From: Planctomycetota bacterium | GTDB lineage: Bacteria > Planctomycetota > GCA-002687715 > CAIWVZ01 | DNA: 64,000 nt | Assembly: GCA_044222185.1 (NCBI GenBank) | Contig: JBGANV010000001.1 | Coordinates: 864,001 to 928,000 of the forward strand | Direction: 5' to 3' | Part shown: one piece after another, positions 9,105 through 26,100 of the stretch | How positions within the stretch are numbered: position 1 is the first letter of the stretch | Layout of the letters: each line of letters opens with the position of its first letter | Position numbers and translations under genes: made by a program | The notes under the pieces: generated by a model | The model's input: the letters and a program-made list of their open reading frames with translations, nothing else | Told to the model about the DNA's origin: nothing | Database searches by the model: none

Positions 9105-11471
9105 TCAGAAGTAGGTGATCAGCCAGTCGTTCGCGATGCCGATCTCCTGGATGACGCCGCCCTGGGCGCCAGGGAGCGGAATCGAGCTGAACGGCTGGAA
9201 CAGGCTCGTGATGACCGCGGTCACGACCGGGCCCAGCGTGGCGGTGGCGCTCGTGCCATCGAAGCCCGGGAAGTTCACGTCGGACGTCGCCGTGGCCGTG
9301 ATCGTGCCCGGCTGGATCGTCAGCGCTCCGGTCTGAGGATCGACGACGAACTGGATGCTGGTCGACGCGCTGAAGCCCATGGCGAACACCGGCACTTCGT
9401 TGCCATCCACGATGGCGTCGAAGCTCATCTTCACGTTCGACAGGTAGAACGTCCCCTGGCTCTGGGCGGACTGCGCCAGCGTGAAGGATGGGGCCGTCGT
9501 GTGACGGACGTGCAGGACGACGGGGGTTGCCGCCGCGAACTTCTCGAAGCCCGCCTGCGGAAGGGCCGTCGCCAACGATCCCGCCGTGAGCGGGATCGCG
9601 GTGCCGCCGGTTCCGAGCTGACCGTTGACGTCCAGGTTGAGCCCGCCGGTCGCCGTCAGTGACGCGAAGAACACGTTGAGCGTGTCGTCGTTCAGGCCCA
9701 CACCGATCGTGTACGCGTTGTTCTGGACGGGTGTCGTTGCGCCGAACGTCGGAAGAACACCGGGCGTCGTCCGATACTGCGTGAGCGCGGGAGCGTCCGG
9801 GTTCGTCGCCGTGGGCGTGAGCGCCACGTTCAGTCCCACGGTGAGGCCGGCAGCGTCATAGAAAAGCGAGTGCGCGGCGAACGCCATCGACAGCGGAATG
9901 CCCTGCGCGCTGAGGTCGAACGCGAAGTTGTTGAACTGGGCGATGAGCGGGTTGATGAGCGGCGGCAGGAGCTGCAGCGTCGCCGCCAGCGCCGTCTGGA
10001 TCGCCGTGCGGAACAGCTGCTGGATCGTGCCGATCTGTGACACGTTCCCGAGCGCGCCGGTGACGGTGAAAGCGAATCCGTTCAGCGTCGTCGTCGCACC
10101 CTGCACCTGGGCCTGCATGCCGTTGGCGCCCTGCACGAACGCGATGTTGCCCGTGATCACGGCGCTCGTCGCCGTGATCGTCGCCGTCTCGTTGTAGGGC
10201 GCGTTGAAGATGACGCCCGTCATGTTGCTCGTGATCACGACGTTCGTGAACGTGATCGACAGTCCGACGGCGCCGTTGGCCCCGGGGAAGAAGTCCACGA
10301 GCACCGTCGGGTCGTAGGTGAAACCCGTCGGATCAGCGGTCACCGAGAGGAGCGTGATTCCGAACGGACCGGGAACGGTGAGGAGGGGGATCGCCGGAAT
10401 CGCAGCGATGACCGAGTTGAAGTCGATCGTGCCGAAGACCTGGGCGATGGGACCCTCGAGCGGATCGAACGTGATCCCGTTCACGCGCAACGCCGAGGCC
10501 GGCGAGGCCGGGCTCGTGATGGCTTGCCCGGTGCCGATCAGGACGCTGACGGTCTTGGCGACCTTCTGCCCGGAGGGCGCGGTGAGTTCGAGCGTGATCG
10601 CCGACATGCCGGGCCCCGGGCCCTGGGGTGCGAGCGTACCGCCGTTGAACGCGCCGTTGCCCTGGATCGCGATGGCGCTGCCGTTCAGTCGCGCCGATTG
10701 GGGCGTGGGTCCGGTGACCGTGCCGGAGACGTTCGTCGTCCCGTTGCCGAATGATCCGTCGACGGGCGACGTGAAGTTGATGTCATAGGCGTCGATGACG
10801 ACCGTGTCGGTGCCGTAGGGGACACCGCCGCCCACGTTCAGGCGCACGACGTACGTCCCGGGGAGGTCGGGTTTGAACGAGGCAAATTCACTCGTGCTCG
10901 ACGTCAGCGCCGGCGCAGCGCCCGCGGGGCCGGAGACGACCTGCCAGTCGAAGGTGATGCCGGCCGGCAGATTGCCCTGCTGATCGCGGTTGCCGCTTCC
11001 ATCCAGGCCGACGGGCTTGTTGACGAGCGTCGCGGCATCCGGTCCTGCCGAAGCCGTTCCGATGCGGAACGTGAACGAGATGCCGTTCGAGGGCACGAGA
11101 CCGCCCGGCGCGTTCGGGTCGACGAAGATCGCCGCCGAGTAGAGAGTCACGCCGACGAGCGACGTGAAGCTCGTCGGGACTTCGAAATTGAAGCCGACCT
11201 GCCCCGTGGCGACGAACGGCTGGCCACCGCCGAGGTCGACGAAACCCGTTCCGGGCCCGACTGGGATCGAGACCGGTCCCGCGATGAACGGGCCCGGGCT
11301 GTCACTGAAGATCCAGTAGAAGGGCGCGCCCGCAGGTCCCGTGAGCTGGAACGTGGGGAAGGATCCCAGATAGATGTCCGCGTGCGTGGTCGAGCCGTTG
11401 ACGGTGAGCGTCTGGGCCAGGAGCTGAGTCGCGAAGAGCAGACCGAGCACGAGTAGCCGTGAGCATTTCAT
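9105..11471 (-). CDS. Large secreted protein: N-terminal tag-like domain, PKD/Ig-like domains, BPI/LBP (TULIP)-like C-terminal region
   Basis: Signal peptide MKCSRLLVLGLLFATQLLA|Q. PKD-like ASAGPD...LDGSGN.D...ITFDWQ...FKPDLPGTYVVRL. GVGLNDDTLNVFFASLTATGGL resembles the BPI C-terminal-domain strand/helix. Confidence 0.7.
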   Translation of the reverse strand: MKCSRLLVLGLLFATQLLAQTLTVNGSTTHADIYLGSFPTFQLTGPAGAPFYWIFSDSPGPFIAGPVSIPVGPGTGFVDLGGGQPFVATGQVGFNFEVPTSFTSLVGVTLYSAAIFVDPNAPGGLVPSNGISFTFRIGTASAGPDAATLVNKPVGLDGSGNRDQQGNLPAGITFDWQVVSGPAGAAPALTSSTSEFASFKPDLPGTYVVRLNVGGGVPYGTDTVVIDAYDINFTSPVDGSFGNGTTNVSGTVTGPTPQSARLNGSAIAIQGNGAFNGGTLAPQGPGPGMSAITLELTAPSGQKVAKTVSVLIGTGQAITSPASPASALRVNGITFDPLEGPIAQVFGTIDFNSVIAAIPAIPLLTVPGPFGITLLSVTADPTGFTYDPTVLVDFFPGANGAVGLSITFTNVVITSNMTGVIFNAPYNETATITATSAVITGNIAFVQGANGMQAQVQGATTTLNGFAFTVTGALGNVSQIGTIQQLFRTAIQTALAATLQLLPPLINPLIAQFNNFAFDLSAQGIPLSMAFAAHSLFYDAAGLTVGLNVALTPTATNPDAPALTQYRTTPGVLPTFGATTPVQNNAYTIGVGLNDDTLNVFFASLTATGGLNLDVNGQLGTGGTAIPLTAGSLATALPQAGFEKFAAATPVVLHVRHTTAPSFTLAQSAQSQGTFYLSNVKMSFDAIVDGNEVPVFAMGFSASTSIQFVVDPQTGALTIQPGTITATATSDVNFPGFDGTSATATLGPVVTAVITSLFQPFSSIPLPGAQGGVIQEIGIANDWLITYF

Positions 11472-11564
11472 AGGACGATTCTGTCTCCAGGTCGAGCTGG
11501 GGAAGGCGACAACGACGACAGTACCTTGGATCGGGGCCGACAGGCCCGGGTCTTGCGGTCGTGC

Positions 11565-11593
11565 ATTGTTGCGATGGAGCCGGGGCAGGTCAA
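11565..11593 (-). promoter_or_regulatory. Putative sigma70 promoter for the 11471 gene
   Basis: Minus strand TTGACC-N17-AACAAT. Confidence 0.5.
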
Positions 11594-11747
11594 CGAAAGC
11601 TGTGCGCAAGTGTGAATGGAAAGAGGCGCGCTGCCGCAGAGTCGAGGGTGTGAACCTCGCACTCGACGGAAAGTTTCAGTCCGCGCCGCGCGGTCCGGTG
11701 AAGCGCGCTTGGAAGTTGCGTTTGACTCGCGCACACTCCGCCGCACC

Positions 11748-12635
11748 ATGACGCAGCCGTCTCCATCGTCCGTCACACCACCCGCTGAACTGGCGTGGGT
11801 CTCCGGGGTCGTCGGGCCGGCATCCGAGGCCCGAGTTCCGCTTTGGGATCGCGGGTTCATGTTTGCTGAGGCGGCCTACGAGGCGTACGTCGGGCGATCG
11901 GGCGTCGTCTTCGCCTGGGACGAGCACCAGGAGCGGCTGCGGCGGACGCTCCACGGGATCCAGATTCCCTTCGCTGAGGAAGCCCTGGCGGAGGTGACCA
12001 AGGCTCGCGATGCCCTCGTCCGCGCCTTCGGCGGAAGCTCGTTCCTCCTCTACGTCCAGGTCACCGGCGGCGTCGCGCCGCGGCTCCACGTCCTGAAGGC
12101 GGATCCTCACCCGGCGGTGTACGCCACGATCCGTCCATGGGACCGCGGACAGCTGGCCGCCGACCAGGCGCGCGGGCTGTTCGTGATCACGCAGCCCGAC
12201 CATCGGTGGAAGTTCGCGACGTACAAGACGACTCAACTCCTTCCCAACGTGCTCGCGAAGAAGGCTGGCCGGCTCGTGAACGCCGACGAGATCGTGTTCG
12301 TGTCGGAACGAGGAACGGTCCTCGAGGGTGGGGCCACCAACTTGTTCTGGGTCGAGCGCGGTCGCCTGTTCACGGCACCCAAGTCCGCCAACATCCTGCC
12401 CGGGATCTCGCGGCTCGCGTTGAACTCGTTCCTCGGCATGCCGTTCGAGGAAGTCGAGGCCCCGCTTTCACGCGTCACCAAGGCCGACGAGGTGTTTCTG
12501 ACGGGGACGACGCGCGAGGTCACGGGTGTCGTGAAAGTGGATGACGCCGTCATCGGCGACGGCCGACCGGGGAAGCTGACTCGCGATCTCTCGGTGCGCT
12601 TCACGGCGGCATTCGACCGCGTCTGTCCACCCTGA
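11748..12635 (+). CDS. Class IV PLP aminotransferase, D-amino-acid aminotransferase-like
   Basis: DRGFMFAEAAYE, YVQVTGG, YKTTQLLPNVLAK, EGGATN, ILPGISR, DEVFLTGT. Confidence 0.85.
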   Translation: MTQPSPSSVTPPAELAWVSGVVGPASEARVPLWDRGFMFAEAAYEAYVGRSGVVFAWDEHQERLRRTLHGIQIPFAEEALAEVTKARDALVRAFGGSSFLLYVQVTGGVAPRLHVLKADPHPAVYATIRPWDRGQLAADQARGLFVITQPDHRWKFATYKTTQLLPNVLAKKAGRLVNADEIVFVSERGTVLEGGATNLFWVERGRLFTAPKSANILPGISRLALNSFLGMPFEEVEAPLSRVTKADEVFLTGTTREVTGVVKVDDAVIGDGRPGKLTRDLSVRFTAAFDRVCPP

Positions 12636-12713
12636 CCTTCGTCCTGTAGACTCGCCCCGAAGAAGAGAGCGCGCCGTCGACGATCCGTACGGCCCGCCGG
12701 AGTAGGGGCAGTC

Positions 12714-15700
12714 ATGGGGACACTGCGGATTCGTGGCGGGCGAGCGGTCACGGCACAACAACACGCGCCGCGCCCGGGACGCGCGGGCCTGGGCCTGAAG
12801 GTCGAGCCGCTGGGTGCGGTACGCGTGGAGGAGACCCGCGATCCGGCGGCGCCAGCTCAGGACATCACGGGCGTCGCCGACGATTCGATCGTCGCCGTGG
12901 AGTTCCAGGGCGGCCTGAAGCTGTGGATGCGCGTCGACGCGTTCCGCAAGGAGTTCGCAAGCCCGGATCGGACCCGCGGCGTCGCGACGTCGGCAAAGGA
13001 CGTGTGGGAGGTGGCGCCGACGCTGGGCATCGGGGGACCGACGCGTGGTTTCACCGAGGTCGTGCTCAAAGGGCTGGAGGTCTTCGGCGTGGACGTGGGG
13101 GCACTCGGCGCTGCTGAACTCGCCCGGCTCGTCGACTCACGTCTCGCTCCGAGCCCAGGCTTGAAGGAGCTGTCTCTGGACGGCCCGTTCGCCATGACGG
13201 ACGTCGCGACGAAAGATGTCCCGACGGACCGGCCCATCCTCGTGTTCATCCACGGCACGGCGTCCAACATCGAGGGGGGATACTCGAAGTTCTGGACGCC
13301 TGAGCACCAGGCGTCACGCGACGTGCTTCGCCGCGAATATGGAAGGGCCTTCGCGTTCGAGCATCGAACGCTCTCCGAGCATCCGATCGCGAACGCCATC
13401 CAGCTGATCGATCGCCTGCCCGAGGGCTCCCGCCTTCACCTCGTGTCGCACTCTCGTGGAGGCCTCGTCGGCGAACTCCTTTGCCGAGGGATGCGCGAGG
13501 ATGGCCAACCTCCGTTCACGTTCGAGGAGATCGAGGCGATCGCCCGTGAGAAGGTCGATCCGGCGATGGTCCGCGAGTTCAGCCGCAAGTTGAAAGAGCG
13601 TGGCATCACCGTCGAGCGATTCGTACGCGTCGCCTGCCCGGCGATGGGAACGACTCTCGCCTCGGGCAAGCTCGATCGATGGCTGTCCGTCGTGAGCAGC
13701 CTCGTTGACTCCATTCCGATCGCCGACGTGCTGCTCGACCTCCTCGTGGTGGTGGCCAAGCAGCGAATGAAGCCCGATGCCATTCCTGGCCTCGGGGCGC
13801 AGATGCCCGAGGCCCGCTTCATCCAGGTGCTCAACGCGCCGAACGTCCGCCTGAAGTCGGACCTCACCGTCATCGCAGGCGACGTTGAAGCCTCGGGAAT
13901 CTGGGGGCACGTCAAGTTGTTCGTCCCCGACCTCTTCTTCGGCGGTGATCACGACCTCGTCGTGAACACCGGGTCCATGTACGGCGGCGCCGCGCGGACG
14001 AGCGGGCGCTTCCTGCGGGACGAGGGCCCCGACGTCAACCACTTCCGGTACTTCACCAACCCGACGTCCGTCCGCGCTCTCGTCGCCGGTCTCACGGCGC
14101 CAGAGACGTCGTCCGTTGCATTCCAACCGTTGTCCGAGGCCCGGGCGAAGCCGCCGGCTCGCGAGGTGCGAGAGATCCGAGCCCCGGCGGGTACCAGGCC
14201 CGTCGTGTTCGTCGTTCCAGGGATCATGGGGAGCCACCTGGCCGTGCGCTCCGAACGGGTCTGGCTGCGACTGGCTGCGATCTTCACGGGCGGACTCAAA
14301 AAGCTTCGGATCGACCCGTTGAAGCCCGCCGCAGTCACACCACAGGCGCTGATCGAGGATGCCTACGGCGATCTCGTCGAGCACCTGGCGGAGACGCATG
14401 ACGTCCGGCCATTCCCGTACGACTGGCGCCTGACACTCCTCGAGAACGGCCGTCGTCTCTCCGTAGCGGTGGAGGCCGCGCTGACGGAGATGGGTGCGTC
14501 CGACCAACCCGTCCGGTTCGTCGCCCACTCCATGGGCGGGCTCGTCGTGCGTGCGCTCATGGCAGTCGCACCCGACGTCTGGTCGAGGGTCACGGAGAAT
14601 CCGGCGTCGCGCTTCGTGATGCTCGGGACGCCCAACGCCGGCTCATTCGAGATCGTCCGGCTCCTCGTGGCTCAGGCCACCGTCCTGAAGCAGCTGGCGA
14701 TGGCGGACATCACCAGCGACCGACACGACCTGCTCGAGGTCATCAAACGATTCCCCGGCGTCCTCCAGCTGCTTCCCAGCTCCGCGGCGGGCGGAGGCGA
14801 TCTGTTGGAACCGAGCCGGTGGGCGAACCTGGCGGCCCAGGCCCCGAGCAAGGACTGGGATCCGCCGATCGACGCCGATCTGGCGCAGGCGTCCTTGGAT
14901 CTCGGCACCGTCCTGGCGACGCAGCTCGATGCCACGCGCACCGTCTACGTCGCAGGTCAGGCGGATGCGACGGCCGTGGGATACGTGATCGCGAAAGACG
15001 AAGACCCGGAGGACCGGATCCAGTTCCTCGCGACGGCGCGGGGTGATGGCAAGGTCCCGTGGGAGACGGGAATACCTGCCGGGATCCCACGATGGTTCAT
15101 GGCCGGCGTCGAGCACGGTGATCTCGCAGCGACCCGGTCTGCGTTTCCTGCGATCGTGGAACTCCTGGAGCGAGGAAAGACGGCGCTGCTTCCGACGGCG
15201 CCTCCGTCCGATCGCGGTCTTGCCGAGACGTTCCCCCTGCCGCGCGAGGTCGTGCCCATGGTCCCGCGGGAGGCGGACATCGCGAGGTCGGCGCTGGGGA
15301 GGGCTCGCGAGGTCGCGCGCGCGAAGGTGACGACGCAACGCGTGCGCGTACGCGTCGTCCACGGCAATCTCGCTTACGCGCACTACCCCGTTGCGGTCGG
15401 GCACTACAGCGGCGACACGATCGTCAGCTCCGAGGCGCATCTCGATCGAGGGCTCGGCGGCAGGCTGAGCCAGCGCGAGGCGTTGGGCCTCTATCCGGGG
15501 CCCCTGGAGACGTGCGCGATCCACATCAACCCCGATCGTTCCGCCTTCCTGCGCGGCGCGATCGTGATCGGACTGGGCGAGGCGGGCTCGCTTCGTCCGG
15601 GGCATCTGGAGTCCACGTTCGCGCGCGCGGCGCTGGAGTTCGCGCTCGCGGTCGCCGAGGACACGACGGGGCGGTTCGACGATCCGTCGGGCGGCGCGCG

Positions 15701-18134
15701 CAAGGCGCGGATCAGCTCGGTCATCATCGGCAGCGGAATGGGAAGCCTGCCTGTTCGGGATGCCATCGAGGCGATCCTGCGCGGGGTCTGGCGTGCCAAC
15801 GGTCTTCTGCTCGGGACGCAACGAACTCGCGGCGTCGTGATCGACGAGATCGAGTTCGTCGAGCTGTGGCAGGACACGGCCATTGCGGCGATGCGCGCAC
15901 TGAAGGCCATCACGGCGGAGGCCGACCTTCGGGACGCCTTCGAAGTGGCCGAGAGGATGGCGTTCGTCCCGGGGGGACTTCGTCGCATCGTTCCCGCGGA
16001 GGAGCCGGGCTGGTGGCACCGGCTGCGCATCGCGGCGGAATCGGACAAGCGACTGCGCTTCACGGCGTTGACGCAGCGCGCTCGCGCCGAGGTCACGTTG
16101 CTCGATCAGCAGCGCCAGCTCATCGACGGATACATTCGCGATGCGATCGGGAACGGACGATCGGGCGATGCGGCCCGAACGCTGTTCGAGCTTCTCATTC
16201 CGAACCCTCTCAAAGATCAGGCTCCCGGGCGGGAGCGGCTGGTGCTGATCGTCGACGAGCAGTCGGCTCGGTACCCCTGGGAGTTGCTCGAGGACCAGGG
16301 GTTGAGCGGGGCCCGACTTCCGGCAAAGACGTCGCGCCCGATGTCCGTGGGGGCCGGTCTCCTGCGCCAGTTCGAGACCTCCACGTACCGGGAGCGGCCG
16401 GTGATGGTGCGCGAGAACGCGGCGCTAGTGATCGGCAATCCGAAGACCGAGTTCCCGGACTTGCCTGGCGCCACGGCCGAAGCGACCGCCGTCGCCCGAG
16501 GGCTGCGCGCCGAGCCACACTCGTACTTCGTGAAGGACGTCGTGGAGGGCGAGGGACACGAGATCGTCACGGCCCTCTATGCTCGGGCATACCGCCTGAT
16601 TCACCTCTGCGGTCACGGCGTGCACGAGTACGCACCCGACGACAAGTCGCCGGACGTGAAGGTCAGCGGATTCGTCCTCGGGAACGGCAAGTTCTTGACG
16701 CCAGCGGAAGTCGAGCAGATGCGCGTCGTTCCCGAACTGGTGTTCATCAACTGTTGCCACCTCGGTCGAGTCGACTCGCAGTTGCGGCGTGACGACCGAC
16801 CCGCGTTCGCGGCCAACATCGCCGGACAGTTCATGCGGTTGGGTGTTCGCGCGGTCGTCGCGGCCGGGTGGGCCGTCGAGGACGGGGCGGCCAAGACGTT
16901 CGCGCAGGCCTTCTATCGCGAGATGCTCTCGGGAGCGACATTCGGAGAAGCCGTGCACACGGCACGCGGCGAAACATACGACGGCCACCCCGGCGTGAAC
17001 ACCTGGGGCGCCTACCAGTGCTACGGCGATCCGTCCTACCGGCTGAACACGGAAGGCTTGGGCAGGCGGCCGCGCGGCCGGAGCGAGCTGACGTTCGTGA
17101 CGCCCGCCGAAGTCGTGGTCGAGTTGGAGAACGTCGCCGCACGCGCGAAGACCGCGGGGAAGAGCGACGTCACGTCACTGCTGGAGCACGTCTCCAAGCT
17201 CGTGACCAAGATCAAGCGCGCTGACCGGTCCGATTGGCTCGATCGAGCGGACGTCAGCGAGGCGATCGGGTTGGCACTGGGCGAACTGGGCGACTTCGAC
17301 GGCGCCGTCGAGTATCTGGATCGAGCCATCGACGCTGACGACGCGACCCTGTCGCTTCGGGCGATCGAGCAGCGGGCGAATCTTCGCGCGCGCGGCGCGG
17401 CGCAGGGCGCCTTCCGCGCGAAGGGCTCGTCAGCCAGGAGGATGATCCAACGCTCCATCGACGAACTGGTCCAGCTCGGTCACTTCGGAGAGACGGTCGA
17501 GCGACTGAGCCTGATCGGAAGCGCGTACAAGTCGCTGGCGTGCGTCGCGACGGGCGCGAAGCGACGGCAGGCGCTCGCGAACATGGCGGCGGCCTACCAG
17601 AAGGCACACGATCGGAGCCTGAGTACGAAGCGTCCCGCCGACGCGAACCGTGTTGGTGCCACCTACCCGTTGCTGAACTGGCTGCTCGCGGACCTTCTGG
17701 CCTCGCGGCTCGGATCGAAGGATCGACTGGCGTCCCTGAGTGAGCTGAAGTCGTGGTGCGACCGCGCGGAGCAAGCGGCCCTCGACGAAGACCGGATCGA
17801 ACCGTCGTACTGGGCGCGCACGACGAGCGGGGAATGCGCGCTACTCCGCGCACTGGCCGAAGGAACGTTGCCGACGAGGATCGACGCGGTCTTCGCTCTT
17901 TACGCCGTCGCCCGTGACCACGCGGCGAGTCCTCGCGAATTCCGCTCGATCCTCGACCACGTGGACTTCATCTGCTCGATGCTCGCGGATGAAGCGACGG
18001 CCACAGTATCGCCCAAGAAGGGGACCTCGAAACACCGGAAGGGGAAGGCTCGCCCAGGAAAGAGCTCACCGGGCGGATCGGCTGACCTCGTCGCCGCGAG
18101 GCAGCTCCACGCGAGACTGGTCGGCCTGGTGTGA
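12714..18134 (+). CDS. Giant CHAT (caspase-like) protein with two alpha/beta-hydrolase (lipase/LCAT-like) domains, macro-like domain and C-terminal TPR-like helices
   Basis: FIHGT...VSHSRGG (S247); VPGIMGS...YDWR...VAHSMGG (S606)...GDGKV...EHG; IHLCGHG (H1301), VFINCCH (C1348), WGAYQCYGDP; helical C-terminus. Confidence 0.88.
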   Translation: MGTLRIRGGRAVTAQQHAPRPGRAGLGLKVEPLGAVRVEETRDPAAPAQDITGVADDSIVAVEFQGGLKLWMRVDAFRKEFASPDRTRGVATSAKDVWEVAPTLGIGGPTRGFTEVVLKGLEVFGVDVGALGAAELARLVDSRLAPSPGLKELSLDGPFAMTDVATKDVPTDRPILVFIHGTASNIEGGYSKFWTPEHQASRDVLRREYGRAFAFEHRTLSEHPIANAIQLIDRLPEGSRLHLVSHSRGGLVGELLCRGMREDGQPPFTFEEIEAIAREKVDPAMVREFSRKLKERGITVERFVRVACPAMGTTLASGKLDRWLSVVSSLVDSIPIADVLLDLLVVVAKQRMKPDAIPGLGAQMPEARFIQVLNAPNVRLKSDLTVIAGDVEASGIWGHVKLFVPDLFFGGDHDLVVNTGSMYGGAARTSGRFLRDEGPDVNHFRYFTNPTSVRALVAGLTAPETSSVAFQPLSEARAKPPAREVREIRAPAGTRPVVFVVPGIMGSHLAVRSERVWLRLAAIFTGGLKKLRIDPLKPAAVTPQALIEDAYGDLVEHLAETHDVRPFPYDWRLTLLENGRRLSVAVEAALTEMGASDQPVRFVAHSMGGLVVRALMAVAPDVWSRVTENPASRFVMLGTPNAGSFEIVRLLVAQATVLKQLAMADITSDRHDLLEVIKRFPGVLQLLPSSAAGGGDLLEPSRWANLAAQAPSKDWDPPIDADLAQASLDLGTVLATQLDATRTVYVAGQADATAVGYVIAKDEDPEDRIQFLATARGDGKVPWETGIPAGIPRWFMAGVEHGDLAATRSAFPAIVELLERGKTALLPTAPPSDRGLAETFPLPREVVPMVPREADIARSALGRAREVARAKVTTQRVRVRVVHGNLAYAHYPVAVGHYSGDTIVSSEAHLDRGLGGRLSQREALGLYPGPLETCAIHINPDRSAFLRGAIVIGLGEAGSLRPGHLESTFARAALEFALAVAEDTTGRFDDPSGGARKARISSVIIGSGMGSLPVRDAIEAILRGVWRANGLLLGTQRTRGVVIDEIEFVELWQDTAIAAMRALKAITAEADLRDAFEVAERMAFVPGGLRRIVPAEEPGWWHRLRIAAESDKRLRFTALTQRARAEVTLLDQQRQLIDGYIRDAIGNGRSGDAARTLFELLIPNPLKDQAPGRERLVLIVDEQSARYPWELLEDQGLSGARLPAKTSRPMSVGAGLLRQFETSTYRERPVMVRENAALVIGNPKTEFPDLPGATAEATAVARGLRAEPHSYFVKDVVEGEGHEIVTALYARAYRLIHLCGHGVHEYAPDDKSPDVKVSGFVLGNGKFLTPAEVEQMRVVPELVFINCCHLGRVDSQLRRDDRPAFAANIAGQFMRLGVRAVVAAGWAVEDGAAKTFAQAFYREMLSGATFGEAVHTARGETYDGHPGVNTWGAYQCYGDPSYRLNTEGLGRRPRGRSELTFVTPAEVVVELENVAARAKTAGKSDVTSLLEHVSKLVTKIKRADRSDWLDRADVSEAIGLALGELGDFDGAVEYLDRAIDADDATLSLRAIEQRANLRARGAAQGAFRAKGSSARRMIQRSIDELVQLGHFGETVERLSLIGSAYKSLACVATGAKRRQALANMAAAYQKAHDRSLSTKRPADANRVGATYPLLNWLLADLLASRLGSKDRLASLSELKSWCDRAEQAALDEDRIEPSYWARTTSGECALLRALAEGTLPTRIDAVFALYAVARDHAASPREFRSILDHVDFICSMLADEATATVSPKKGTSKHRKGKARPGKSSPGGSADLVAARQLHARLVGLV

Positions 18135-18505
18135 GCGCGGGCGCGGACTCGCCACCCTGCATCGTCCGAGGTGATTCGAGACGGCGAGGTCTCTCGGTGC
18201 CGGAGTGAATCGGCTTCGCCCTGACGACGGAAATCGCGTTGCGAAAACCTGCGCGGCGCTCGTCCGCGTGGGACGGACGCGATCGGGGCGCACTTCAAGC
18301 TGGTGCGCTTCCCCGAAGTCGTCGAGGATGGTTGCGTCCACCGCCGAGCACGCCTTCGCCGTGCGACGAGATGGCGTCAAGTGCGGGTTTCCGTGCATCT
18401 GCGCGGGCCGTTCGACGCGGACGTCGCTGGTTCGGGGATCCATCGCCATGTGAACACGCCTGTCGCGGCCTCCCTCGAGCGTCGATCGTGGCCGTGGCCA
18501 TACGT

Positions 18506-18532
18506 GAAATCCAGCCGGACGCGGTGGTCGTA
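18506..18532 (+). promoter_or_regulatory. Putative ECF-sigma promoter
   Basis: GAAATCC-N15-TCGTA about 60 nt upstream of the DUF4394 gene; resembles ATCC-N15-(G)CGTA ECF promoters. Confidence 0.4.
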
Positions 18533-18592
18533 GATCTGCATGCCGAGGCGCCACGCCCGTGCGCCTTCCATCAAGACCATCGGAGAAGAGAC

Positions 18593-19789
18593 ATGAAGAT
18601 CCCGGCAATCGCCGTTGCGTCATTCCTCGCCCTTTCGGCAGCGCTCGCCTCAGCGCAGCAGATCGTGCTTCTCACCGAAGCAGCAACCCTCGTGACGATC
18701 GACGGCTCCGTGCCCGGCGCCGCGCTTTCGAGCGTTCCCATCACCGGCCTCCATGCCGGTGAATTCGTCCACGGAGTCGATTTCCGACCCGCAACCGGGC
18801 AGCTGTATGCCCTGGGAAGCCAGGGATACCTGTACACGGTGAACACGATCGATGGCGTCGCCACGCAGGTTGGCGGCATGCTGACCACCACCCTTTCCGG
18901 AACGAGTTTCGGCTTCGACTTCAATCCGACCGTCGACCGCATCCGGGTCGTGAGCAACACCGGCCAGAACCTTCGCCTCAATCCGGTGACGGGCGCCGTC
19001 GCCGCCATCGATCTGTCGCTCGCCTTCGCGGCGACGGACGTGAATGCAGGACAGACGCCGCAAGTGAGCGGCTCGGCCTACACGAACAACGTCGCGGGTG
19101 CGACGACCACCACGCTCTACGACATCGATGGCGGCCTCGACGTGCTCGTCACGCAGGTGCCGCCGAACAATGGCGTCCTGAACACGGTCGGGCCGTTGGG
19201 AATCGACGTCGGAAGCGTGAACGGCTTCGACATCTCGGGTGCGACGGGAATCGCTTATGCGGCGCTCACCTCTCCGGGGGCCCAGGTGAACTCTTCCAAC
19301 CTCTTCACGATCAACCTCGCCACCGGAGCGGCGACGTTCGTCTCGAACCTCGGTGCCGTGGGGCAGGTGCGCGGCCTTTCGGTCATGCCGCTTCCGGGCG
19401 TCGCGCGGTTCGGCGCGGCCACGCTGGGGTGCAACGGTCGCGTCGCCCTGGGTGTCAACTCGAAGGCGTCCATCGGCAACCTGGGCTTTGCGCTGCTCGC
19501 GGGCAATGCGGCACCGAACGCCGCCGGCCTCGTCGTCCTCTCGGATGCTGCGCTGAACCCGCCCGTGTCGAGTGGCGGTGTTTTGTTGCTCGTGGACATG
19601 GCGTCGGCTGCTGCGGTGACCTTGCCGGTGACGGCTGACGTTTTCGGACGGGCTGGTCTGGCGCTCGCCATTCCGACCGACCCCAGCCTGGTGGGACTCA
19701 CGCGCTTCCTCCAGGTCGGGTTCGTCGATCTGTGCGGTCCGTCCGGCGTTGCGACGTCGAACGGCATCTCCATCACGATCCAGCCCTGA
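18593..19789 (+). CDS. Secreted DUF4394-domain protein with C-terminal beta-sandwich tag
   Basis: Signal peptide MKIPAIAVASFLALSAALASA|Q; GVDFRPATGQLYALG, FGFDFNPTVDRIRVVS, AYTNN, TTLYDID, GFDI; GGAG RBS. Confidence 0.88.
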   Translation: MKIPAIAVASFLALSAALASAQQIVLLTEAATLVTIDGSVPGAALSSVPITGLHAGEFVHGVDFRPATGQLYALGSQGYLYTVNTIDGVATQVGGMLTTTLSGTSFGFDFNPTVDRIRVVSNTGQNLRLNPVTGAVAAIDLSLAFAATDVNAGQTPQVSGSAYTNNVAGATTTTLYDIDGGLDVLVTQVPPNNGVLNTVGPLGIDVGSVNGFDISGATGIAYAALTSPGAQVNSSNLFTINLATGAATFVSNLGAVGQVRGLSVMPLPGVARFGAATLGCNGRVALGVNSKASIGNLGFALLAGNAAPNAAGLVVLSDAALNPPVSSGGVLLLVDMASAAAVTLPVTADVFGRAGLALAIPTDPSLVGLTRFLQVGFVDLCGPSGVATSNGISITIQP

Positions 19790-19825
19790 CCTCACGGGGG
19801 CGGGATGAACGGCTTCCCGTGACCC

Positions 19826-19861
19826 ATGCCGGGCCTGTGAGATGGCCCGGCATCTTCTTTT
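19826..19861 (+). terminator. Rho-independent terminator
   Basis: Perfect 10-bp stem ATGCCGGGCC/GGCCCGGCAT, 8-nt loop, then CTTCTTTT. Confidence 0.75.
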
Positions 19862-19956
19862 CCCGACGAGACTTCCGGCGTGACGTCGATGACGACGATC
19901 GCCGTGGCGGCTTCGCAGCAAGGATCCCGAAACGGGGATCACTTCCACCTGTCCTC

Positions 19957-20001
19957 CTGGTCGATATACTGGCCATCCAACCAGCATGGTCGGATGACCA
20001 G
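19957..20001 (+). promoter_or_regulatory. Tandem SOS-box-like operators overlapping a TATACT -10 element
   Basis: CTGG-CCATCCAA-CCAG (19969-19984), ATGG-TCGGATGA-CCAG (19986-20001), weaker CTGG-N8-CTGG (19957-19972); TATACT at 19965-19970. Confidence 0.7.
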
Positions 20002-20026
20002 ACTGGGCTGGAGACGCGGAGGCCGC

Positions 20027-20731
20027 ATGCGCGAGATCACGAAGAGCCAGGCTCGGGTGTTGCGATTCATCCGGGAGTTCTGCGAAGAGCGGGGATTTCC
20101 GCCCACGCACAAGGAGATCGCCGAGGGGTTGGGCTTCAGCTCGCCCAATGCGGCGGGCGAACATCTGCGCCTTCTGGTGAAGAAGGGCGTGGTGGCCGTG
20201 GAGCCTGGAGTCTCGCGCGGCTTGCGGATCGTGGAGGACGCCGAGACCCCCTCGCCCAGGGCCAGGCACGCGCTGGCGAAGGGGCCTGCACAGACGCGGG
20301 GGAGAGTGAGTGGTCTCGAGCTGCCGCTCATCGGCCACGTGGCTGCCGGTCAACCGATCCTGGCGGAAGCCAACGTGGAGCGGACGGTGACCGTCGATTC
20401 CGAGCTGTTTCGTTCTCGCGCCGACTATCTCCTGCGTGTCCGGGGAGATTCCATGATCGAGGCTGGGATCCTGCCGGGTGATCTGGTGGCCGTCAGCCGG
20501 GCTTCGCGCGTGCGCGATGGGCAGGTTGCCGTCGTGCGGCTCGACGACGAGGTCACCGTCAAGCGCTGGCACACGAAAGGCCGGGGGGACGGGCTGCGCG
20601 TGGTGCTCGAGCCGGCCAACGCGGCGCTGAAGCCCATGGTCTTCGATCCACGTCGAGTGCATGTGGCGGTGGAAGGCCTGGTCGTGGGGTTGGTGCGCTC
20701 GACCCTTTCGATTCGGGGGCACGTCTCATGA
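20027..20731 (+). CDS. lexA: LexA repressor
   Basis: GFPPTHKEIA, SPNAAGEHL, VAAG cleavage site, GDSM (Ser), VTVKR (Lys); GGAGG RBS. Confidence 0.96.
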   Translation: MREITKSQARVLRFIREFCEERGFPPTHKEIAEGLGFSSPNAAGEHLRLLVKKGVVAVEPGVSRGLRIVEDAETPSPRARHALAKGPAQTRGRVSGLELPLIGHVAAGQPILAEANVERTVTVDSELFRSRADYLLRVRGDSMIEAGILPGDLVAVSRASRVRDGQVAVVRLDDEVTVKRWHTKGRGDGLRVVLEPANAALKPMVFDPRRVHVAVEGLVVGLVRSTLSIRGHVS

Positions 20732-21636
20732 CCGCCGCTCGCAAGCAGGTCGACCTGGACGAGATCCACCGGCTGCGCTCGGCCATCGCCGCATGCGAGC
20801 GGGGCGAGCGAGTGCCCACGCTTTCGGTCATGCCTCGGACGGAATCCCTGCCGGGAAATGTGCCGGAGGGTGCGCTCCTCAGTCGCGATGGGGCCACGCT
20901 CTCGCCGTCGTCCGCACGATCGGAGGCCTTGGGGGCGAGCGTGCCCGCGGAGGTCTCGTCGCGGCTTTCCCAGAGCATTCGTCTGGCGACGGGCTTCCAG
21001 GCCCTCGACGACGCGCTTGGTGGAGGTCTCCACCACGGAGCCTTGAACGAAGTGTTCGTGGCGTCCGCGGGGAGCGGGGCCTTGGAGACGTTGCTGCCGG
21101 CGGTGGCGCGGGCGGGCGCGGGCAAGCGACTTTTGGCCTGGATCCATCCCACTTGCACGCCTTATCCGCCGGCGCTGGTGCAATGCGGATTCGCTCTCGA
21201 GCGGTGGCTCGTGGTCCGACCCGCGAGCGAGGACGACCATCAATGGGCCATCGATCAGTCGCTGCGTTCGGGAGCGTGCGATGCCGTCGTCGCCTACCTG
21301 GGCGATCTGCCGGATCGACTGCTGCGGCGACTTCAGCTCGCGGCGCAGGAAGGACGCACGCTCGGACTCTTCTTCCGACCTGCGGCCACCATGACCCGGC
21401 CATCACCGGCTGCCGTGCGCCTCTTCGCCGAACCGGTTCCCTCGCGCGACACGCGCATGCGTCGCGTGCGTTTCGACGTGTTGCGATGCCGCGGCACGCC
21501 CCACACCCCGTCCGTTTTTCTGGAGTGGTCCCGTGACCCGCTGGATGAGCCTCCAACTTCCTTTCCTGCCGATCGAACGACTGACGCTCGCGATGCCGGG
21601 GCTGGATCGGGCCCCCTTCGCGCTTCTATCGCGTGA
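20728..21636 (+). CDS. imuA: ImuA, RecA-like translesion-synthesis accessory protein
   Basis: TGFQALDDALGGGL, PYPPAL, WAIDQSLRSGAC, RRLQLAAQEG, PSPAAVRL. Confidence 0.9.
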   Translation: MTAARKQVDLDEIHRLRSAIAACERGERVPTLSVMPRTESLPGNVPEGALLSRDGATLSPSSARSEALGASVPAEVSSRLSQSIRLATGFQALDDALGGGLHHGALNEVFVASAGSGALETLLPAVARAGAGKRLLAWIHPTCTPYPPALVQCGFALERWLVVRPASEDDHQWAIDQSLRSGACDAVVAYLGDLPDRLLRRLQLAAQEGRTLGLFFRPAATMTRPSPAAVRLFAEPVPSRDTRMRRVRFDVLRCRGTPHTPSVFLEWSRDPLDEPPTSFPADRTTDARDAGAGSGPLRASIA

Positions 21637-23038
21637 AGGCGAGCGCGACGTCGTCGTCGCCAGCTCGGCGGCGGCCAGAAAGTGTGGCGTGAAGCCGGGC
21701 TTGCCGGCCGCCGCAGCACGGGCACTCTGCGCAGGGCTGGAAATCCGGCGTCACGAGCCGGACGAAGATCGCCGTCTGCTCGAGCGCCTGGCCGTCATCG
21801 CCCAGCAGTTCACGCCGGACGTGTGCCTGGACGGAGCCAGCGGACTTTTTCTCGAAGTGGGGCGGACGGCGCGGCGCTTCGGTGGCGAGGGCTCTCTGGC
21901 GGAGCGGGTGCGGGCGCTTTGCACGGGGCTCGGGCATCACCCGCGTCTCGGGATTGCGTCCACGTCACGGGCTGCGCGAGCCCTGGCGCGCGCGGGCGGT
22001 GCGGCCATCGCCATCGCGCCCGGTGACGATCCCAGGCCGGCGCTGGTGGGACTTCCCTGGCGAGTGCTTTCCCCGCCGGACACGGTGGCCGATGCGTTCA
22101 TCGCCTTGGGGTTGGAGACCGTCGGGGACGTCCTGCGGCTGCCGTGGTCCGGGATCGCCGCACGTTGCGGGGACGATTTCCTCCGCGAGCTCCAATGCCT
22201 CGTGGGAGAGCGGGACGAGCCGCTCGTGCGCGTTCGACCCGTGGATCTCTTTGCCGAGCGGTTCGAGTTCTGGCAGCCGACGGATGACTCCAGTCGCATC
22301 ATCTTCGTCGCCAAGCGCCTGTTCGACCTGGCGGAGGCCCATCTGGCCGTTCGCAATCAGGGCCTTGCCACCATCGAGCTGGATCTCATCCAGTCGGATG
22401 ACGGATCCGTGCTGCATCTCGCGCTGCGTCCGGGTGTGCCCACGCGGGATGCGCGCGTGCTCGTGCGGTTGCTCGGGCATCGCCTCGAACGCGAAGCGTT
22501 GCGCTCACCGGTGGAGGAGATCCGTCTTTGGTTCGACGAGACCGTGCCGCTGCCCGAGCGGCAGGGACTCTTGTTCGACGAGGCTCCGGCGTTTCGCGAA
22601 GACGACGAAGCGCTGGCGTTGAAAGATCGCCTGGCGGTGCGGCTGGGTGAGGATCGGGTGAATGCTCCGCTCCTCCTGGACGATCATCGTCCCGAGCGGG
22701 CGTTTCGCTGGCGCAAGCACGGAGAGGCCGTGGATCTCCGTTCACCGGCAGCCGTCGCGTGCGCGCCGCCAGGACGACGACCGCTGGAGCTTCACGCCTC
22801 GCCGCAACGGGTGATGGTGGGTTCGGACGCATCCGGTCGACCCCTGGCGATCCTGGAAGGGTCGCAGCGAGGCCCGTTGCGCGTCGTGCGCGGCCCCGAG
22901 CGCATCGAGAGTGGTTGGTGGGACGGGCAGGACGTGCGTCGGCTCTACTTCGAAGTGGAGACACCCCTGGGTATTCGCCTGTGGGTGTTTCGCGATCAAC
23001 ACACGGGCACGTGGCATCAGCATGGAACCTTCCAGTAG
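21533..23038 (+). CDS. imuB: ImuB, inactive Y-family DNA polymerase
   Basis: GVKPGLP..AARA, FTPDV, FGGE.SL, DDHRPERA, RPL.L, GPERIESGWW, RLYF...LWVFR. Confidence 0.92.
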   Translation: MTRWMSLQLPFLPIERLTLAMPGLDRAPFALLSREGERDVVVASSAAARKCGVKPGLPAAAARALCAGLEIRRHEPDEDRRLLERLAVIAQQFTPDVCLDGASGLFLEVGRTARRFGGEGSLAERVRALCTGLGHHPRLGIASTSRAARALARAGGAAIAIAPGDDPRPALVGLPWRVLSPPDTVADAFIALGLETVGDVLRLPWSGIAARCGDDFLRELQCLVGERDEPLVRVRPVDLFAERFEFWQPTDDSSRIIFVAKRLFDLAEAHLAVRNQGLATIELDLIQSDDGSVLHLALRPGVPTRDARVLVRLLGHRLEREALRSPVEEIRLWFDETVPLPERQGLLFDEAPAFREDDEALALKDRLAVRLGEDRVNAPLLLDDHRPERAFRWRKHGEAVDLRSPAAVACAPPGRRPLELHASPQRVMVGSDASGRPLAILEGSQRGPLRVVRGPERIESGWWDGQDVRRLYFEVETPLGIRLWVFRDQHTGTWHQHGTFQ

Positions 23039-23145
23039 CGAAGCGCGATCCTTCCACGCCGCGGGATGGCGGGTGAACGACGCCACGGCGAGAGCCCTGC
23101 GAGCCGGTCCGGTGGACGCCTGGCGTTTCGGTGGCGGGTCTCGTC

Positions 23146-26100
23146 ATGCCTGACATCCCGCTGTCGAAAGTCCACCCTCATCCGGCCAAGGCGGGGAAAC
23201 GGCCCGACGCCCACGGCAGTACGGCGGAGGTCGAATCCACCCCGCGCTGCGAGTACGCCGAGCTCCACTGCGTCACGAACTTCAGCTTCCTGCGGGGCGC
23301 CTCTCACCCCGACGAACTCGTGGCCAAGTCCGTCGAACTGGGCTATGCGGCGGTGGCCATCACCGACGAGCATTCGCTGGCCGGTGTGGTTCGGGCGCAC
23401 GTGGCCGCGAAGGAGCGCAAGTTTCCGCTGATCGTCGGAGCCGAGATCACGCCGGACGACGCGGCGGCCGTCGTTCTGCTCGCCACCGACCGAGCCGCCT
23501 ACGGACGTCTCTCGCGACTCCTCACGATCGGGAGACGGCGAGCCGCGAAGGGCACGTGTCTTCTGCATCGGAACGACATCGCCGCGCATGCCGAAGGGCT
23601 CCTCGCCATCGGCATCGCCGACGAGTCGGCCTTGCGTCCCGACGCGGATGAATCGGCCATGAACCGGACGCACGGACGGTTGGCGTGGTTGCGCGACGTC
23701 TTTGGGGATCGCGCCGCGCTGGAAGTGGCTCTGCACGATGGTCCCGACGATCGGGCGCGTCTGCGGCGGCTGGATGAGCTTGCCCGACGCACGGGCCTGC
23801 CGCTGGTCGCCGCCGGCAACGTGGACGCCCACGTCAGCGAGCGTCGCGCCGTGCGCGATACGCTGATCGCCATCCGACATGGTTGCGCCGTGTCCGAACT
23901 GGGATCGCGGCTGCCCGCGTGCGGCGTCAAACCCCTGCGCGATGCGGCGACGCTGCAGCGCCTGCACGCAGGACGTCCCGAGCTCTTGCGACGCTCGGTG
24001 GAGCTGGCCGCCCGCTGTCACTTCTCGCTCGACGAGCTCCGCTACGAGTACCCGGCCGAAGGAGACGCGGACACGCTCCGCCGCCTCGTCGAACATCACG
24101 CCCGCGAGCGATGGCCAGAAGGCATGCCCGCCAAGGTACGCGGACTCATCGAGCACGAGATGGCCCTCGTCGCCGAGCTCCAGTACGAGCGGTACTTCCT
24201 CACGGTCCACGAACTCGTGCATTTCGCCCGCGGCCGCGGCATCCTCTGCCAGGGGCGGGGAAGCGCGGCCAATTCCGCCATCTGCTACGTGCTCGGGATC
24301 ACGTCCGTCGACCCCGATCGCTTCGACGTCCTCTTCGAGCGATTCGTTTCCCGCGACCGGCACGAACCTCCGGACATCGACGTGGACTTCGAGCACGAGC
24401 GGCGGGAGGAAGTCCTCCAACACATCTACGAGAAGTACGGTCGCGAGCGCGCGGCCATCGCTGCCACCGTCATCACGTATCGCGGACGCAGCGCCATGCG
24501 CGACGTGGGGAAGGCTCTGGGCCTCACCCTCGATCAGGTGGATCGTCTCGCGACCGGCCTCGAATGGTGGGATGCGGTCGACTGGCCGGAAAAGCGCCTG
24601 AAGGAATCCGGGTTCGATCCGCAGGATCCGCTCTTGCGACGGGTGATCGGACTCACGCAGGAGATCCAGGGGTTCCCGCGGCACCTCTCCCAGCACGTGG
24701 GCGGCATGGTGATCACGGCGGGACGTCTGGACGAGATGGTGCCCATCGAGAACGCCGCCATGGATGACCGCACGGTGATCCAGTGGGACAAGGACGACCT
24801 GGACGCCCTCGGCATCTTGAAGGTGGATTGCCTCTCGCTCGGCATGCTCACGGCGATCCGCCGAGCCTTCGAATTCATCGAGCAGGTGCGCGGACGCAGA
24901 CTCGGCCTCGCGGACGTGCCTGCGGAGGATCCGGAGGTCTACCGCATGCTCCAGCGGGCGGACACCATCGGCGTCTTCCAGATCGAGAGCCGTGCGCAGA
25001 TGGCCATGCTTCCGCGGCTCAAGCCGCGCGAGTTCTACGACCTCGTGATCGAAGTGGCGATCGTCCGCCCCGGCCCCATCCAAGGCGGCATGGTGCATCC
25101 GTACCTGCGTCGACGCGAAGGGTCGGAGCAGGTCTCGTTCCCATCCGAGGCCGTGCGGTCCGTGCTGCAGAAGACGCTCGGCGTTCCCATCTTCCAGGAG
25201 CAGGCCATGCGGCTTGCGGTCGTCGCCGCCGGATTCACGCCCGGTGAGGCGGACCAGCTGCGTCGTGCCATGGGCGCCTGGCGCCGCGCGGGGCTGATCC
25301 AGTCCTTCGAGAAGAAGCTCGTCGACGGCATGCTCGAGCGGGGCTACGCGGAAGAGTTCGCGCGGGGACTCTTCAAACAGCTGCTCGGCTTTGGCGAGTA
25401 CGGCTTCCCCGAGAGTCACGCCGCGAGCTTCGCGCTCCTGACCTACGTGTCGAGCTGGCTCAAGCGATACGAGCCTGCCTGCTTCGCCGCGGCCCTGTTG
25501 AACAGCCAGCCCATGGGGTTCTACGCACCGGCGCAGCTCGTGCGCGACGCGCGGTCGCATGGAGTGGTCGTGCATCCCGTCGACGTGTCGAAGAGCTTCT
25601 TCGACTGCACGCTGGAGGCGCCCGTGCACGGCGAGCCGCGACTCTCCACGGCGTTCGTTCCGCCTCAGGCGTTCGGGCGGGGAGGGCCCTCGCTGCGCCT
25701 GGGTTTCCGCATGGTGAAGGGCCTGTCGCGCGCCGCGGCCGATCGCCTGGTGGCGGCTCGATCGGAGCGGGCCTTCGACTCGGTGGAGGACTGCAAGCAT
25801 CGAGGACGGCTCAATCGCCGGGAGGCAACCCTGCTCGCGGATGCGGGAGCCTTCGGCGAGTTGTCTCCCAATCGCCGAGCCGCCTGGTGGGATGCGGCCT
25901 TCGAACATCAGTCCACGCCCCTGCTGGATGCGACCGAGGCGGAAATCTTCGACGAGCTCAAACCCGATCTGGAACCTCCGTCGCTCGCCGAGGTCGTCGT
26001 GGCGGACTACAAGACGGTGGGCCTGTCATTGGAAGAACATCCCATGGCGCTCTTGCGGGATGCCGTCGCCAGGTACGGCGCCAAGCCCAATGCCGCGTTG

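Follow-up and report, generated by a model that had tools for sequence, protein, structure and literature searches.

Two lipase-like hydrolases and a CHAT protease in one chain: a candidate protease-effector conflict module from a Planctomycetota bacterium

Why would a bacterium place two lipase-like hydrolases and a caspase-like protease in one polypeptide? This question is raised by a gene at positions 12714–18134 of a 64,000-nucleotide stretch of DNA from a Planctomycetota bacterium (GenBank assembly GCA_044222185.1, contig JBGANV010000001.1, positions 864,001 to 928,000; the whole stretch is called the window here). The first-pass annotation had suggested that a sensor, a protease and effectors are fused in this protein into one defence or programmed-death module. 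Our analysis led to a related reading, which we hold with moderate confidence on the grounds of sequence, structure models and analogy: the protein may well unite the protease and the effectors of a conflict module in a single chain, as an enzyme that kills the cell but stays latent until it is set off by a trigger of its own.

Domain architecture and conserved residues

The gene is present as one copy in the 7.08-Mb genome. A Pfam scan of its product gave four families above their cut-offs, namely DUF7379 (from residue 176, E 1.3e-31), LCAT (residues 563–653, E 8.9e-10), CHAT (1153–1439, E 1.2e-33) and TPR-S (1527–1657, E 1e-12). Pfam and the AlphaFold2 (AF2) models agree with the lipase-lipase-macro-CHAT-TPR layout proposed in the first pass, including the TPR-like helices at the C-terminus. 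From the N-terminus to the C-terminus, the protein consists of a beta-rich N-domain, a DUF7379 hydrolase, a hydrolase similar to LCAT and lysosomal phospholipase A2 (LPLA2), a macro-fold domain, a CHAT protease and a TPR-S region. The features of the gene are as follows:

12714..18134, + strand: whole gene, protein P0001, ATG start, 1806 aa
12714..13148, + strand: N-domain, residues 1–145, mostly beta strands, belonging to no known family
12975..12980, + strand: R88-G89, candidate cleavage site 1 (R88 invariant, modelled coil)
13044..13049, + strand: R111-G112, candidate cleavage site 2 (conserved pair, modelled coil)
13149..14123, + strand: hydrolase 1, residues 146–470, DUF7379 lipase-type alpha/beta fold (Pfam, AF2, conservation)
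14196..15218, + strand: hydrolase 2, residues 495–835, LCAT/LPLA2-like (Pfam LCAT, profile matches)
15213..15218, + strand: R834-G835, candidate cleavage site 3, in the linker that joins the effector half to the protease half (conservation)
15333..15938, + strand: macro-fold domain, residues 874–1075 (AF2 fold, invariant motifs)
15939..16169, + strand: beta-rich bridge from the macro fold to CHAT, residues 1076–1152, conserved
16170..17030, + strand: CHAT caspase-like protease, residues 1153–1439, with H1301 and C1348 (Pfam)
17211..18023, + strand: helical TPR/TPR-S region, residues ~1500–1770, presumed sensor (Pfam TPR-S, conservation profile)

The motifs named earlier were located again by script: SHSRGG at 245 (S247), PGIMGS at 502, YDWR at 569, AHSMGG at 604 (S606), GDGKV at 777, EHG at 800, GHG at 1300 (H1301) and NCC at 1346 (C1348). 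To measure their conservation, a word-indexed search was used, which found 472 proteins at E<=0.001 among 8000 candidates scored, and the best 120 homologs were aligned with MAFFT; the counts out of 120 given below come from this alignment. These homologs are 38–49% identical to the protein and cover 93–98% of it, with four exceptions at 79–89%, and nearly all of them share the same Pfam set. The residues S247, D414, H443, D778, H801, H1301 and C1348 were kept in 120/120 homologs and S606 in 118/120. Both nucleophile elbows, which lie in lipase-type hydrolase domains, and the CHAT dyad were thus borne out, and judged by the alignment the catalytic residues are under selection. Given this conservation, the motif set is far beyond chance. 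A spurious open reading frame (ORF) is excluded by the homologs, and gene decay is ruled out, all catalytic residues being intact.

The N-domain and hydrolase 1 fold as a single unit in the AF2 model of residues 1–490 (predicted local distance difference test, pLDDT, 85.6; predicted template modelling score, pTM, 0.88). From residue 146 on, the best matches of this model are lipase-type alpha/beta hydrolases. Hydrolase 1 has a putative oxyanion pair, H180-G181, kept in 120/120 homologs like its putative triad S247, D414 and H443. The N-domain had no Pfam match, and a protein-atlas search gave weak leads alone (scores 0.81 and 0.80); its conserved residues are G8, R42, G67, W71, R88, R111 and G112.

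Hydrolase 2 matched LCAT (PF02450) with 38.8 bits against a cut-off of 21, and this match covers only model positions 86–174 of 392. When the family profile was compared with the PDB, hydrolase 2 matched group XV phospholipase A2 (4x90, E 1.2e-5) and LCAT (E 2e-4). Its putative triad is S606, D778 and H801; both Ser-Asp-His triads were assigned from conservation and from their order along the chain. The two hydrolases are related to each other, with an hhalign probability of 95.1% (E 3.3e-8, 156 columns) versus 0.2–2.2% for six control pairs. Neither a signal peptide, as noted in the first pass, nor a membrane anchor was seen, because the N-terminus is polar and the top hydrophobic window lies inside hydrolase 1 (Kyte-Doolittle value 2.09 over 19 residues, at 330–348); no transmembrane helix was predicted either.

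The CHAT domain (PF12770) was recognised with 117.2 bits against a cut-off of 24, over model positions 3–289 of 289. Behind it, consensus-TPR matches were found at profile positions 1509–1545. Conservation is lowest in the TPR-S region, and from this and the name of the Pfam family we presume that it is the sensor. The bridge in front of CHAT was poorly modelled on its own (block pLDDT 47–68), and W1100, R1103 and R1124 are conserved in it.

The domain between the hydrolases and the protease had been labelled macro. The label stood as a fold: the AF2 model of residues 850–1150 (pLDDT 83.4, core above 90) was aligned to 48,161 PDB representatives, and the lower-listed matches included the PARP14 macro domain (14.4), Af1521 (14.3), macroH2A (14.2), DarG (13.1) and EcThsA (10.4). 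It did not stand as membership of the ADP-ribose-binding family, to which the domain is less close than to the N-domain of M17 aminopeptidases. The same two relatives came up when the profile of this middle domain was compared with the PDB, where the top two matches were the N-domain of M17 aminopeptidase 3jru (E 0.04) and the 159-aa TTHA0132 (E 0.11). A G-D-x-I-V strand and an L-L-G-T-G-x-G-G loop align with TTHA0132, which at E 0.11 is the sole sequence link to the Macro family; we take the first Asp and the glycine loop to match the adenine- and phosphate-binding elements of canonical macrodomains. Peptidase_M17_N (PF02789) appeared at the same place in 10/25 homologs (E 0.0029–0.11), every match being under the curated cut-off of 23.4 bits. 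Pfam Macro (PF01661) gave none at E<=1 in the protein and the 25 homologs, in a search where HMMER filters drop most matches above ~0.1, and phmmer with the middle domain alone gave chance-level matches only among PDB sequences. The sequence link of the domain to macro and M17 N-domains therefore looks weak but convergent.

The domain differs from the leucyl aminopeptidase N-domain in that no M17 catalytic domain follows it, and it has strongly conserved motifs of its own. G-H-Y-x-G-D (896–901), E907, D911, Y-P-G (927–929), G-L-G-x-x-G (953–958) and G1006 in a Gly-rich loop are invariant, and E1050 and D1054 are also conserved. These polar and glycine motifs suggest that the domain may have a binding site, or a fixed interface, of its own.

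Candidate cleavage sites and proposed action

How could the protease and the hydrolases of one chain work together? Caspase-like proteases linked to hydrolases have been described before. In the available text of Kaur et al. 2020 (eLife, PMC7159879), caspase-superfamily domains of the conflict systems treated there always occur with a neighbouring alpha/beta-hydrolase gene. According to the accessible part of Evans et al. 2025 (bioRxiv 10.1101/2025.11.14.688446), a Lysobacter caspase-like protease (LcCaspase) cuts the neighbouring hydrolase (LcHydrolase) at the R|G sites R73 and R117, and the cut hydrolase kills E. coli; its substrate is not known. A preprint by Rousset et al., as far as its text could be seen, reports a defence caspase-like protease that strictly takes arginine at P1.

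Four conserved Arg-Gly pairs occur outside the nucleophile elbow in the family (R88, R111-G112, R311-G312 and R834-G835). Judged by conservation and the models, R88, R111-G112 and R834 are candidate sites for the protease. R88 is invariant in 23/23 sequences and kept in >=90% of 50, and it sits in a modelled coil (82–96) where its 10-residue block has a mean pLDDT of 63. R111 was kept in 120/120 homologs and G112 in 118/120, and the pair lies in an inter-strand coil (107–113, block pLDDT 72–76). In both coils the model confidence is below that of the surroundings, and both lie within indel-rich stretches. R834 was kept in 119/120 homologs and G835 in 65/120; natural forms without hydrolases start near residue 875, ~40 residues C-terminal to this pair.

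We propose the following action. A cue would be sensed by the TPR-S repeats, perhaps also by the macro-fold domain. The signal would switch on CHAT through H1301 and C1348, possibly via oligomerisation and the preceding macro-fold domain. CHAT would then cut after R88 and at R111|G112, in N-domain loops packed on hydrolase 1, and at R834|G835 in the linker between the two halves. Cleavage would free or unmask one or both of the lipase/phospholipase-like hydrolases. Their substrate may be membrane lipids or some other ester, and the cell would die or arrest before the phage cycle ends.

Modularity, neighbours and genomic setting

A module of this kind should be visible in its relatives. At least 488 species genomes have a relative in a scan of 185,579 species genomes. 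Among the matches listed, relatives come from Pseudomonadota, Desulfobacterota, Acidobacteriota, Nitrospirota, Verrucomicrobiota, Methylomirabilota, Binatia, Actinomycetota, Bacillota and Bacteroidota, and cultured strains are three (two Thauera, one Rhodoferax). The records name family members only 'CHAT domain-containing protein', 'DUF7379' or similar. By its sequence relatives, the architecture is that of a widespread, uncharacterised family conserved across phyla.

The macro-fold domain was then used as a phmmer query against 1.84 billion representatives, giving 1,432 matches at E<=0.001, 1,128 at <=1e-10 and 404 at <=1e-30. In all 27 matches of unusual length, CHAT follows the macro-fold domain, and the N-terminal part varies: it can hold both hydrolases, DUF7379 alone, LCAT alone (in records that may be truncated) or 100–500 residues without a Pfam match. 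Hydrolase-less proteins with macro fold, CHAT and TPR-S (883–968 aa) are common, at 11 of 27 proteins listed, and they also occur at the related loci L017, L040 and L075. From the other end, 323 shorter proteins match residues 1–480, many of them partial records. One Chloroflexia metagenome-assembled genome (MAG; L091) has the gene in two parts, divided at the domain border between residues 483 and 500 and separated by 6 nt. An extra C-terminal TIR domain was found in 5/120 of the best homologs. The picture suggested by these sequences is a constant macro-fold-CHAT-TPR-S module with lipase-like effectors fused or encoded alongside, a modularity typical of effector-plus-constant-module systems.

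Genes next to the family were compared in 80 loci that were kept, and the family gene was identified in 71 of them; 2,254 flanking ORFs were clustered. The recurrent neighbours are:

C14 caspase, ~280 aa: 25/71 loci, 23 directly upstream on the same strand; 2 large C14 fusions downstream
TIR-like and TPR-S proteins: 17/71 loci
TIR or TIR-FGE-sulfatase proteins: 14/71 loci
520-aa membrane protein: 9/71 loci
M15 peptidase: 8/71 loci, stop/start overlap in five
Clostripain C11: 6/71 loci
CBASS-type patatin: 5/71 loci
Trypsin-like protease: 3/71 loci

At least one of C14, TIR, C11, patatin, trypsin and M15 was present in 47/71 loci (36/47 of the loci in which each flank is >=3 kb long), as raw counts with no random-gene baseline. 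The link of homologs with defence loci, for which a check had been proposed, was thus seen as a conflict-type neighbourhood in relatives and stands within the limit of such counts. No gasdermin family was found among the flanking ORFs of the window or the scanned representatives of recurrent neighbour clusters.

Several loci deserve a separate description. The Peptidase_M15-like gene lies just downstream in 8 loci and overlaps the family stop codon by 4–11 nt in L016, L049, L054, L077 and L042, which suggests translational coupling. In L040 (1601–8335), a Bacillota MAG, a hydrolase-less form is flanked by a MACPF-like gene on one side and a Tle1-like phospholipase gene on the other, possibly a version of the system with the protease and a separate membrane effector. 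In L017 (5596–9816), a clostripain C11 gene precedes a hydrolase-less form, and a contractile-injection tape-measure gene is located 2.7 kb upstream of that form. The large proteins L010:12902–17212 (1436 aa) and L075:13778–18649 (1623 aa), just downstream of family members, have a C-terminal C14 caspase and 1100–1300 N-terminal residues without a Pfam match.

TIR or TIR-like genes lie beside 26/71 loci overall, which raises the question whether a small molecule is the gate. In that case a TIR protein, fused or encoded at another place, would produce an ADP-ribose-derived messenger, and the macro-fold domain would bind it and switch CHAT on allosterically, instead of or besides TPR-S. The Thoeris systems provide precedents; in the part available of a preprint on TIR-based immune signalling, the Macro domain of type II Thoeris binds the TIR-made signal. 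In our family, the G-D-x-I-V strand and the L-L-I-G-T-G-x-G-G loop are invariant and align with the two TTHA0132 motifs, and to the C-terminal TIR fusions and the TIR neighbours are added 8 TIR matches in this genome. Against these points stand the lack of a Pfam Macro match at E<=1, the absence of a TIR gene from this contig and the 45/71 loci without a TIR neighbour; the triple-glycine loop that we take to mark canonical macrodomains is also not conserved in the family consensus. We regard such a gate as unlikely.

A wider version, to which we likewise give little credence, combines both inputs in one chain. The macro-fold domain would be the receptor for the TIR-made ADP-ribose-derived messenger and TPR-S would read a protein cue, and together they would license an arginine-specific CHAT. 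The protease would cut its own N-domain loops and linker, release two phospholipases and, in many relatives, fire the upstream C14 caspase.

In the genome studied here, the gene stands alone, as had been noticed before. Its flanks are a class-IV aminotransferase gene (11616–12635) on one side, and a DUF4394 gene and then lexA on the other. The order upstream is M17 aminopeptidase, LON-N, TatD and class-IV aminotransferase genes, and the order downstream is DUF4394, a terminator-like hairpin (19826–19853), lexA, an imuA-like ORF, imuB and dnaE2. No homolog of any flanking gene lies beside the family gene in the 71 related loci. One further feature was recognised from the synteny of relatives:

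12636..19879, no strand: 7.2-kb insertion with the family gene and an unrelated secreted DUF4394 gene, from the aminotransferase-IV gene to lexA

The aminotransferase-IV gene and lexA are only 91–117 nt apart in three genomes of the same family (G001, G003 and G004), and a fourth (G002) has ~2 kb of unrelated DNA at this junction. Because the junction is tight in three relatives and holds different DNA in the fourth, we conclude that the spot is variable and that the gene came in with a 7.2-kb insertion. A search of 60 sampled relatives (4 from its family, 18 from its order and 38 from its phylum) gave no match to the protein at E<=1e-20. Short, near-identical contigs from sludge and bioreactor metagenomes of other studies span the gene and the upstream junction (X3 record 12461–13025); the records listed included no RNA run. 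Joints in metagenome contigs that skip the gene have sides of only 21–43 nt and were disregarded as cross-matches.

These data bear on the possibility that the protein is a housekeeping or stress enzyme under proteolytic control, which would serve lipid remodelling or developmental or stress lysis in sludge or biofilm with no link to phage. It would agree with the 24/71 loci that lack any conflict-type neighbour, with the near-identical DNA in bioreactor and activated-sludge metagenomes of several studies, and with Evans et al. 2025, whose available text raises stress responses as a possible role of protease-effector modules. However, an accessory conflict gene fits better, because the spread is patchy, the gene lies in an insertion at a variable spot, C14 caspases are linked in an operon-like manner in 23 loci and TIR genes are associated in 26, and the sensor-like C-terminus is variable. 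A housekeeping role is, in our judgement, improbable.

DUF4394 was rejected as a partner, since it has its own signal peptide, starts ~460 nt downstream and never recurs beside relatives. Its ORF (18239–19789) is over-extended; the probable start Met is at ~18593, before the signal peptide, which gives a secreted protein of ~398 aa. Two other parts of the window were noted. Positions 19880–26400 hold lexA, the imuA-like ORF (20728–21636, no Pfam match), imuB (IMS family) and dnaE2, a typical SOS mutagenesis cassette. An 834-aa ORF at 9105–11609 on the minus strand, divergent from the aminotransferase gene, has no Pfam family and a weak match to Glucodextran_B (E 0.0012).

The genome as a whole is rich in conflict-system domains. 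It has 5 CHAT loci, namely this gene and four on contigs C6, C4, C8 and C1, the last one ~565 kb away on the same contig, as well as one C14 locus and one further TPR-S locus above the cut-off. The 8 TIR (TIR_2) matches are on C5, C6, C7, C9, C11 and C15; C1, the contig of the window, has no TIR or C14 match. In a sample of 300 genomes of one class, DUF7379 matched in 34/300 at E<=1e-6. Two unpublished genomes (G103 and G205) are counted in this figure, and no other result depends on them. Ten strong matches were in giant ORFs.

Evidence against, known systems and significance

A number of observations weigh against a conflict module. With regard to the cleavage sites, the R of R311-G312 is kept in 99/120 homologs, but this protein has M311; R88 and R111 are 23 residues apart and N-terminal to the catalytic core, which differs from the reported R73/R117. 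Homology of hydrolase 1 (DUF7379) to LcHydrolase would be conjectural, and one standalone DUF7379 gene (L136) has no Pfam-recognisable caspase beside it. Membrane attack is deduced solely from the likeness to lipases, LPLA2 and LCAT. The macro-fold domain is closer to M17 N-domains than to the macrodomains that bind ADP-ribose. The flanks in the window hold no adjoining partner, TIR, caspase or other defence gene, and a PADLOC-DB 2.0 scan of the protein gave 0 families at E<=1 and so no known defence system; an NCBIfam scan gave nothing usable. The neighbour counts are raw, and they overstate independence because many loci come from related Rhodocyclaceae/Thauera genomes. The tape-measure gene at one related locus would suit an exported toxin.

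That last explanation, in which the protein is exported or injected against competitors as contractile or type VI-like cargo, its lipases hitting the target membrane and CHAT autoprocessing after delivery, is the least likely of all: it could call on the tape-measure gene 2.7 kb upstream of the hydrolase-less relative in L017 and on the Tle1-like phospholipase gene adjoining in L040, but the protein has neither a signal peptide nor a recognisable delivery domain, no secretion-system gene was found among the recurrent neighbours of the 71 loci or in the window flanks, no conserved immunity-like small gene lies downstream, and the recurrent partners (C14 caspase, TIR and TPR-S proteins) are parts of cytoplasmic conflict systems.

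The fused death module of the first pass was therefore retained in part. The conserved architecture, the modularity, the conflict-type neighbours of relatives and the precedent of cleavage at R/G sites are in its favour; the nature of the macro fold, the lack of a PADLOC match and the solitary position in the window are not.

Among known systems, the single-chain protease-effector module would work most like the zymogen modules of caspase-like protease and alpha/beta-hydrolase (Kaur 2020; Evans 2025). Both have a caspase-superfamily Cys protease linked to a lipase-like Ser hydrolase, here in one ORF, with conserved Arg-Gly in loops near the hydrolase, varied sensors and an accessory, patchy spread. 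Our protein differs in being a single 1,806-aa chain with two hydrolases, a CHAT-type protease after a macro-fold domain and a TPR-S sensor, and its closely spaced candidate sites lie in a separate N-domain, whereas R73/R117 are inside LcHydrolase.

Craspase TPR-CHAT (Csx29 of type III-E CRISPR) likewise has a latent CHAT and TPR repeats activated by a sensing event. However, the TPR of Csx29 is N-terminal and here it is C-terminal; Csx29 also lacks a lipase, and the protein that it cuts, Csx30, is a separate one. When the family profile was compared with the PDB, none of the matches at E<=0.01 was a Csx29 chain. Pfam scans of the flanking ORFs of the window gave no cas family, with no CRISPR-array search made, and no type III-E gRAMP/Cas7-11 effector is among these ORFs (aminotransferase, TatD, LON-N, M17, DUF4394, LexA, ImuB and DnaE2).

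SAVED-CHAT/PCaspase of type III-B CRISPR and type IV Thoeris (TIR and ThsE) share with our protein a domain before a CHAT or caspase-like protease, and the proteases of those systems are arginine-specific. A second caspase-like protein may likewise act downstream in our family, where C14 caspase genes lie directly upstream in 23/71 loci. Here, in contrast, the domain is a macro fold and not SAVED, no cyclase or TIR gene adjoins in the window, and the effectors are fused lipases, not a promiscuous protease on its own. Compared with ThsA of type II Thoeris, there is no transmembrane segment, the macro fold is M17-like, and a protease and lipases replace the pore. LCAT and lysosomal phospholipase A2 (PF02450) share the nucleophile-elbow region of hydrolase 2, which differs from them in being bacterial, predicted cytoplasmic and fused. 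By its defining neighbours, this is not a Craspase TPR-CHAT, Thoeris or gasdermin system.

Full-text literature searches found no description of the fusion or of the macro-fold-CHAT pairing, although the supplements of Kaur 2020 and Evans 2025 may list the fusion, and they found no relevant paper on 'DUF7379' or 'TPR-S'. As far as these searches reach, the constant macro-fold-CHAT pairing is undescribed.

It is becoming apparent that bacterial immunity works to a large extent through death effectors gated by proteases; for the alpha/beta-hydrolase class, the zymogen nature was shown only recently, in the available text of Evans et al. 2025. Because sensor, protease, macro fold and two effectors are in one chain here, cleavage sites, activation and substrate could be worked out from a single construct. 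If the macro-fold domain binds a nucleotide signal, TIR signalling, caspase-like proteolysis and membrane destruction would be connected in this family. Should the two-input reading be true, a bacterial caspase cascade would be joined to lipid destruction, and the macro-fold domain would be a new class of receptor.

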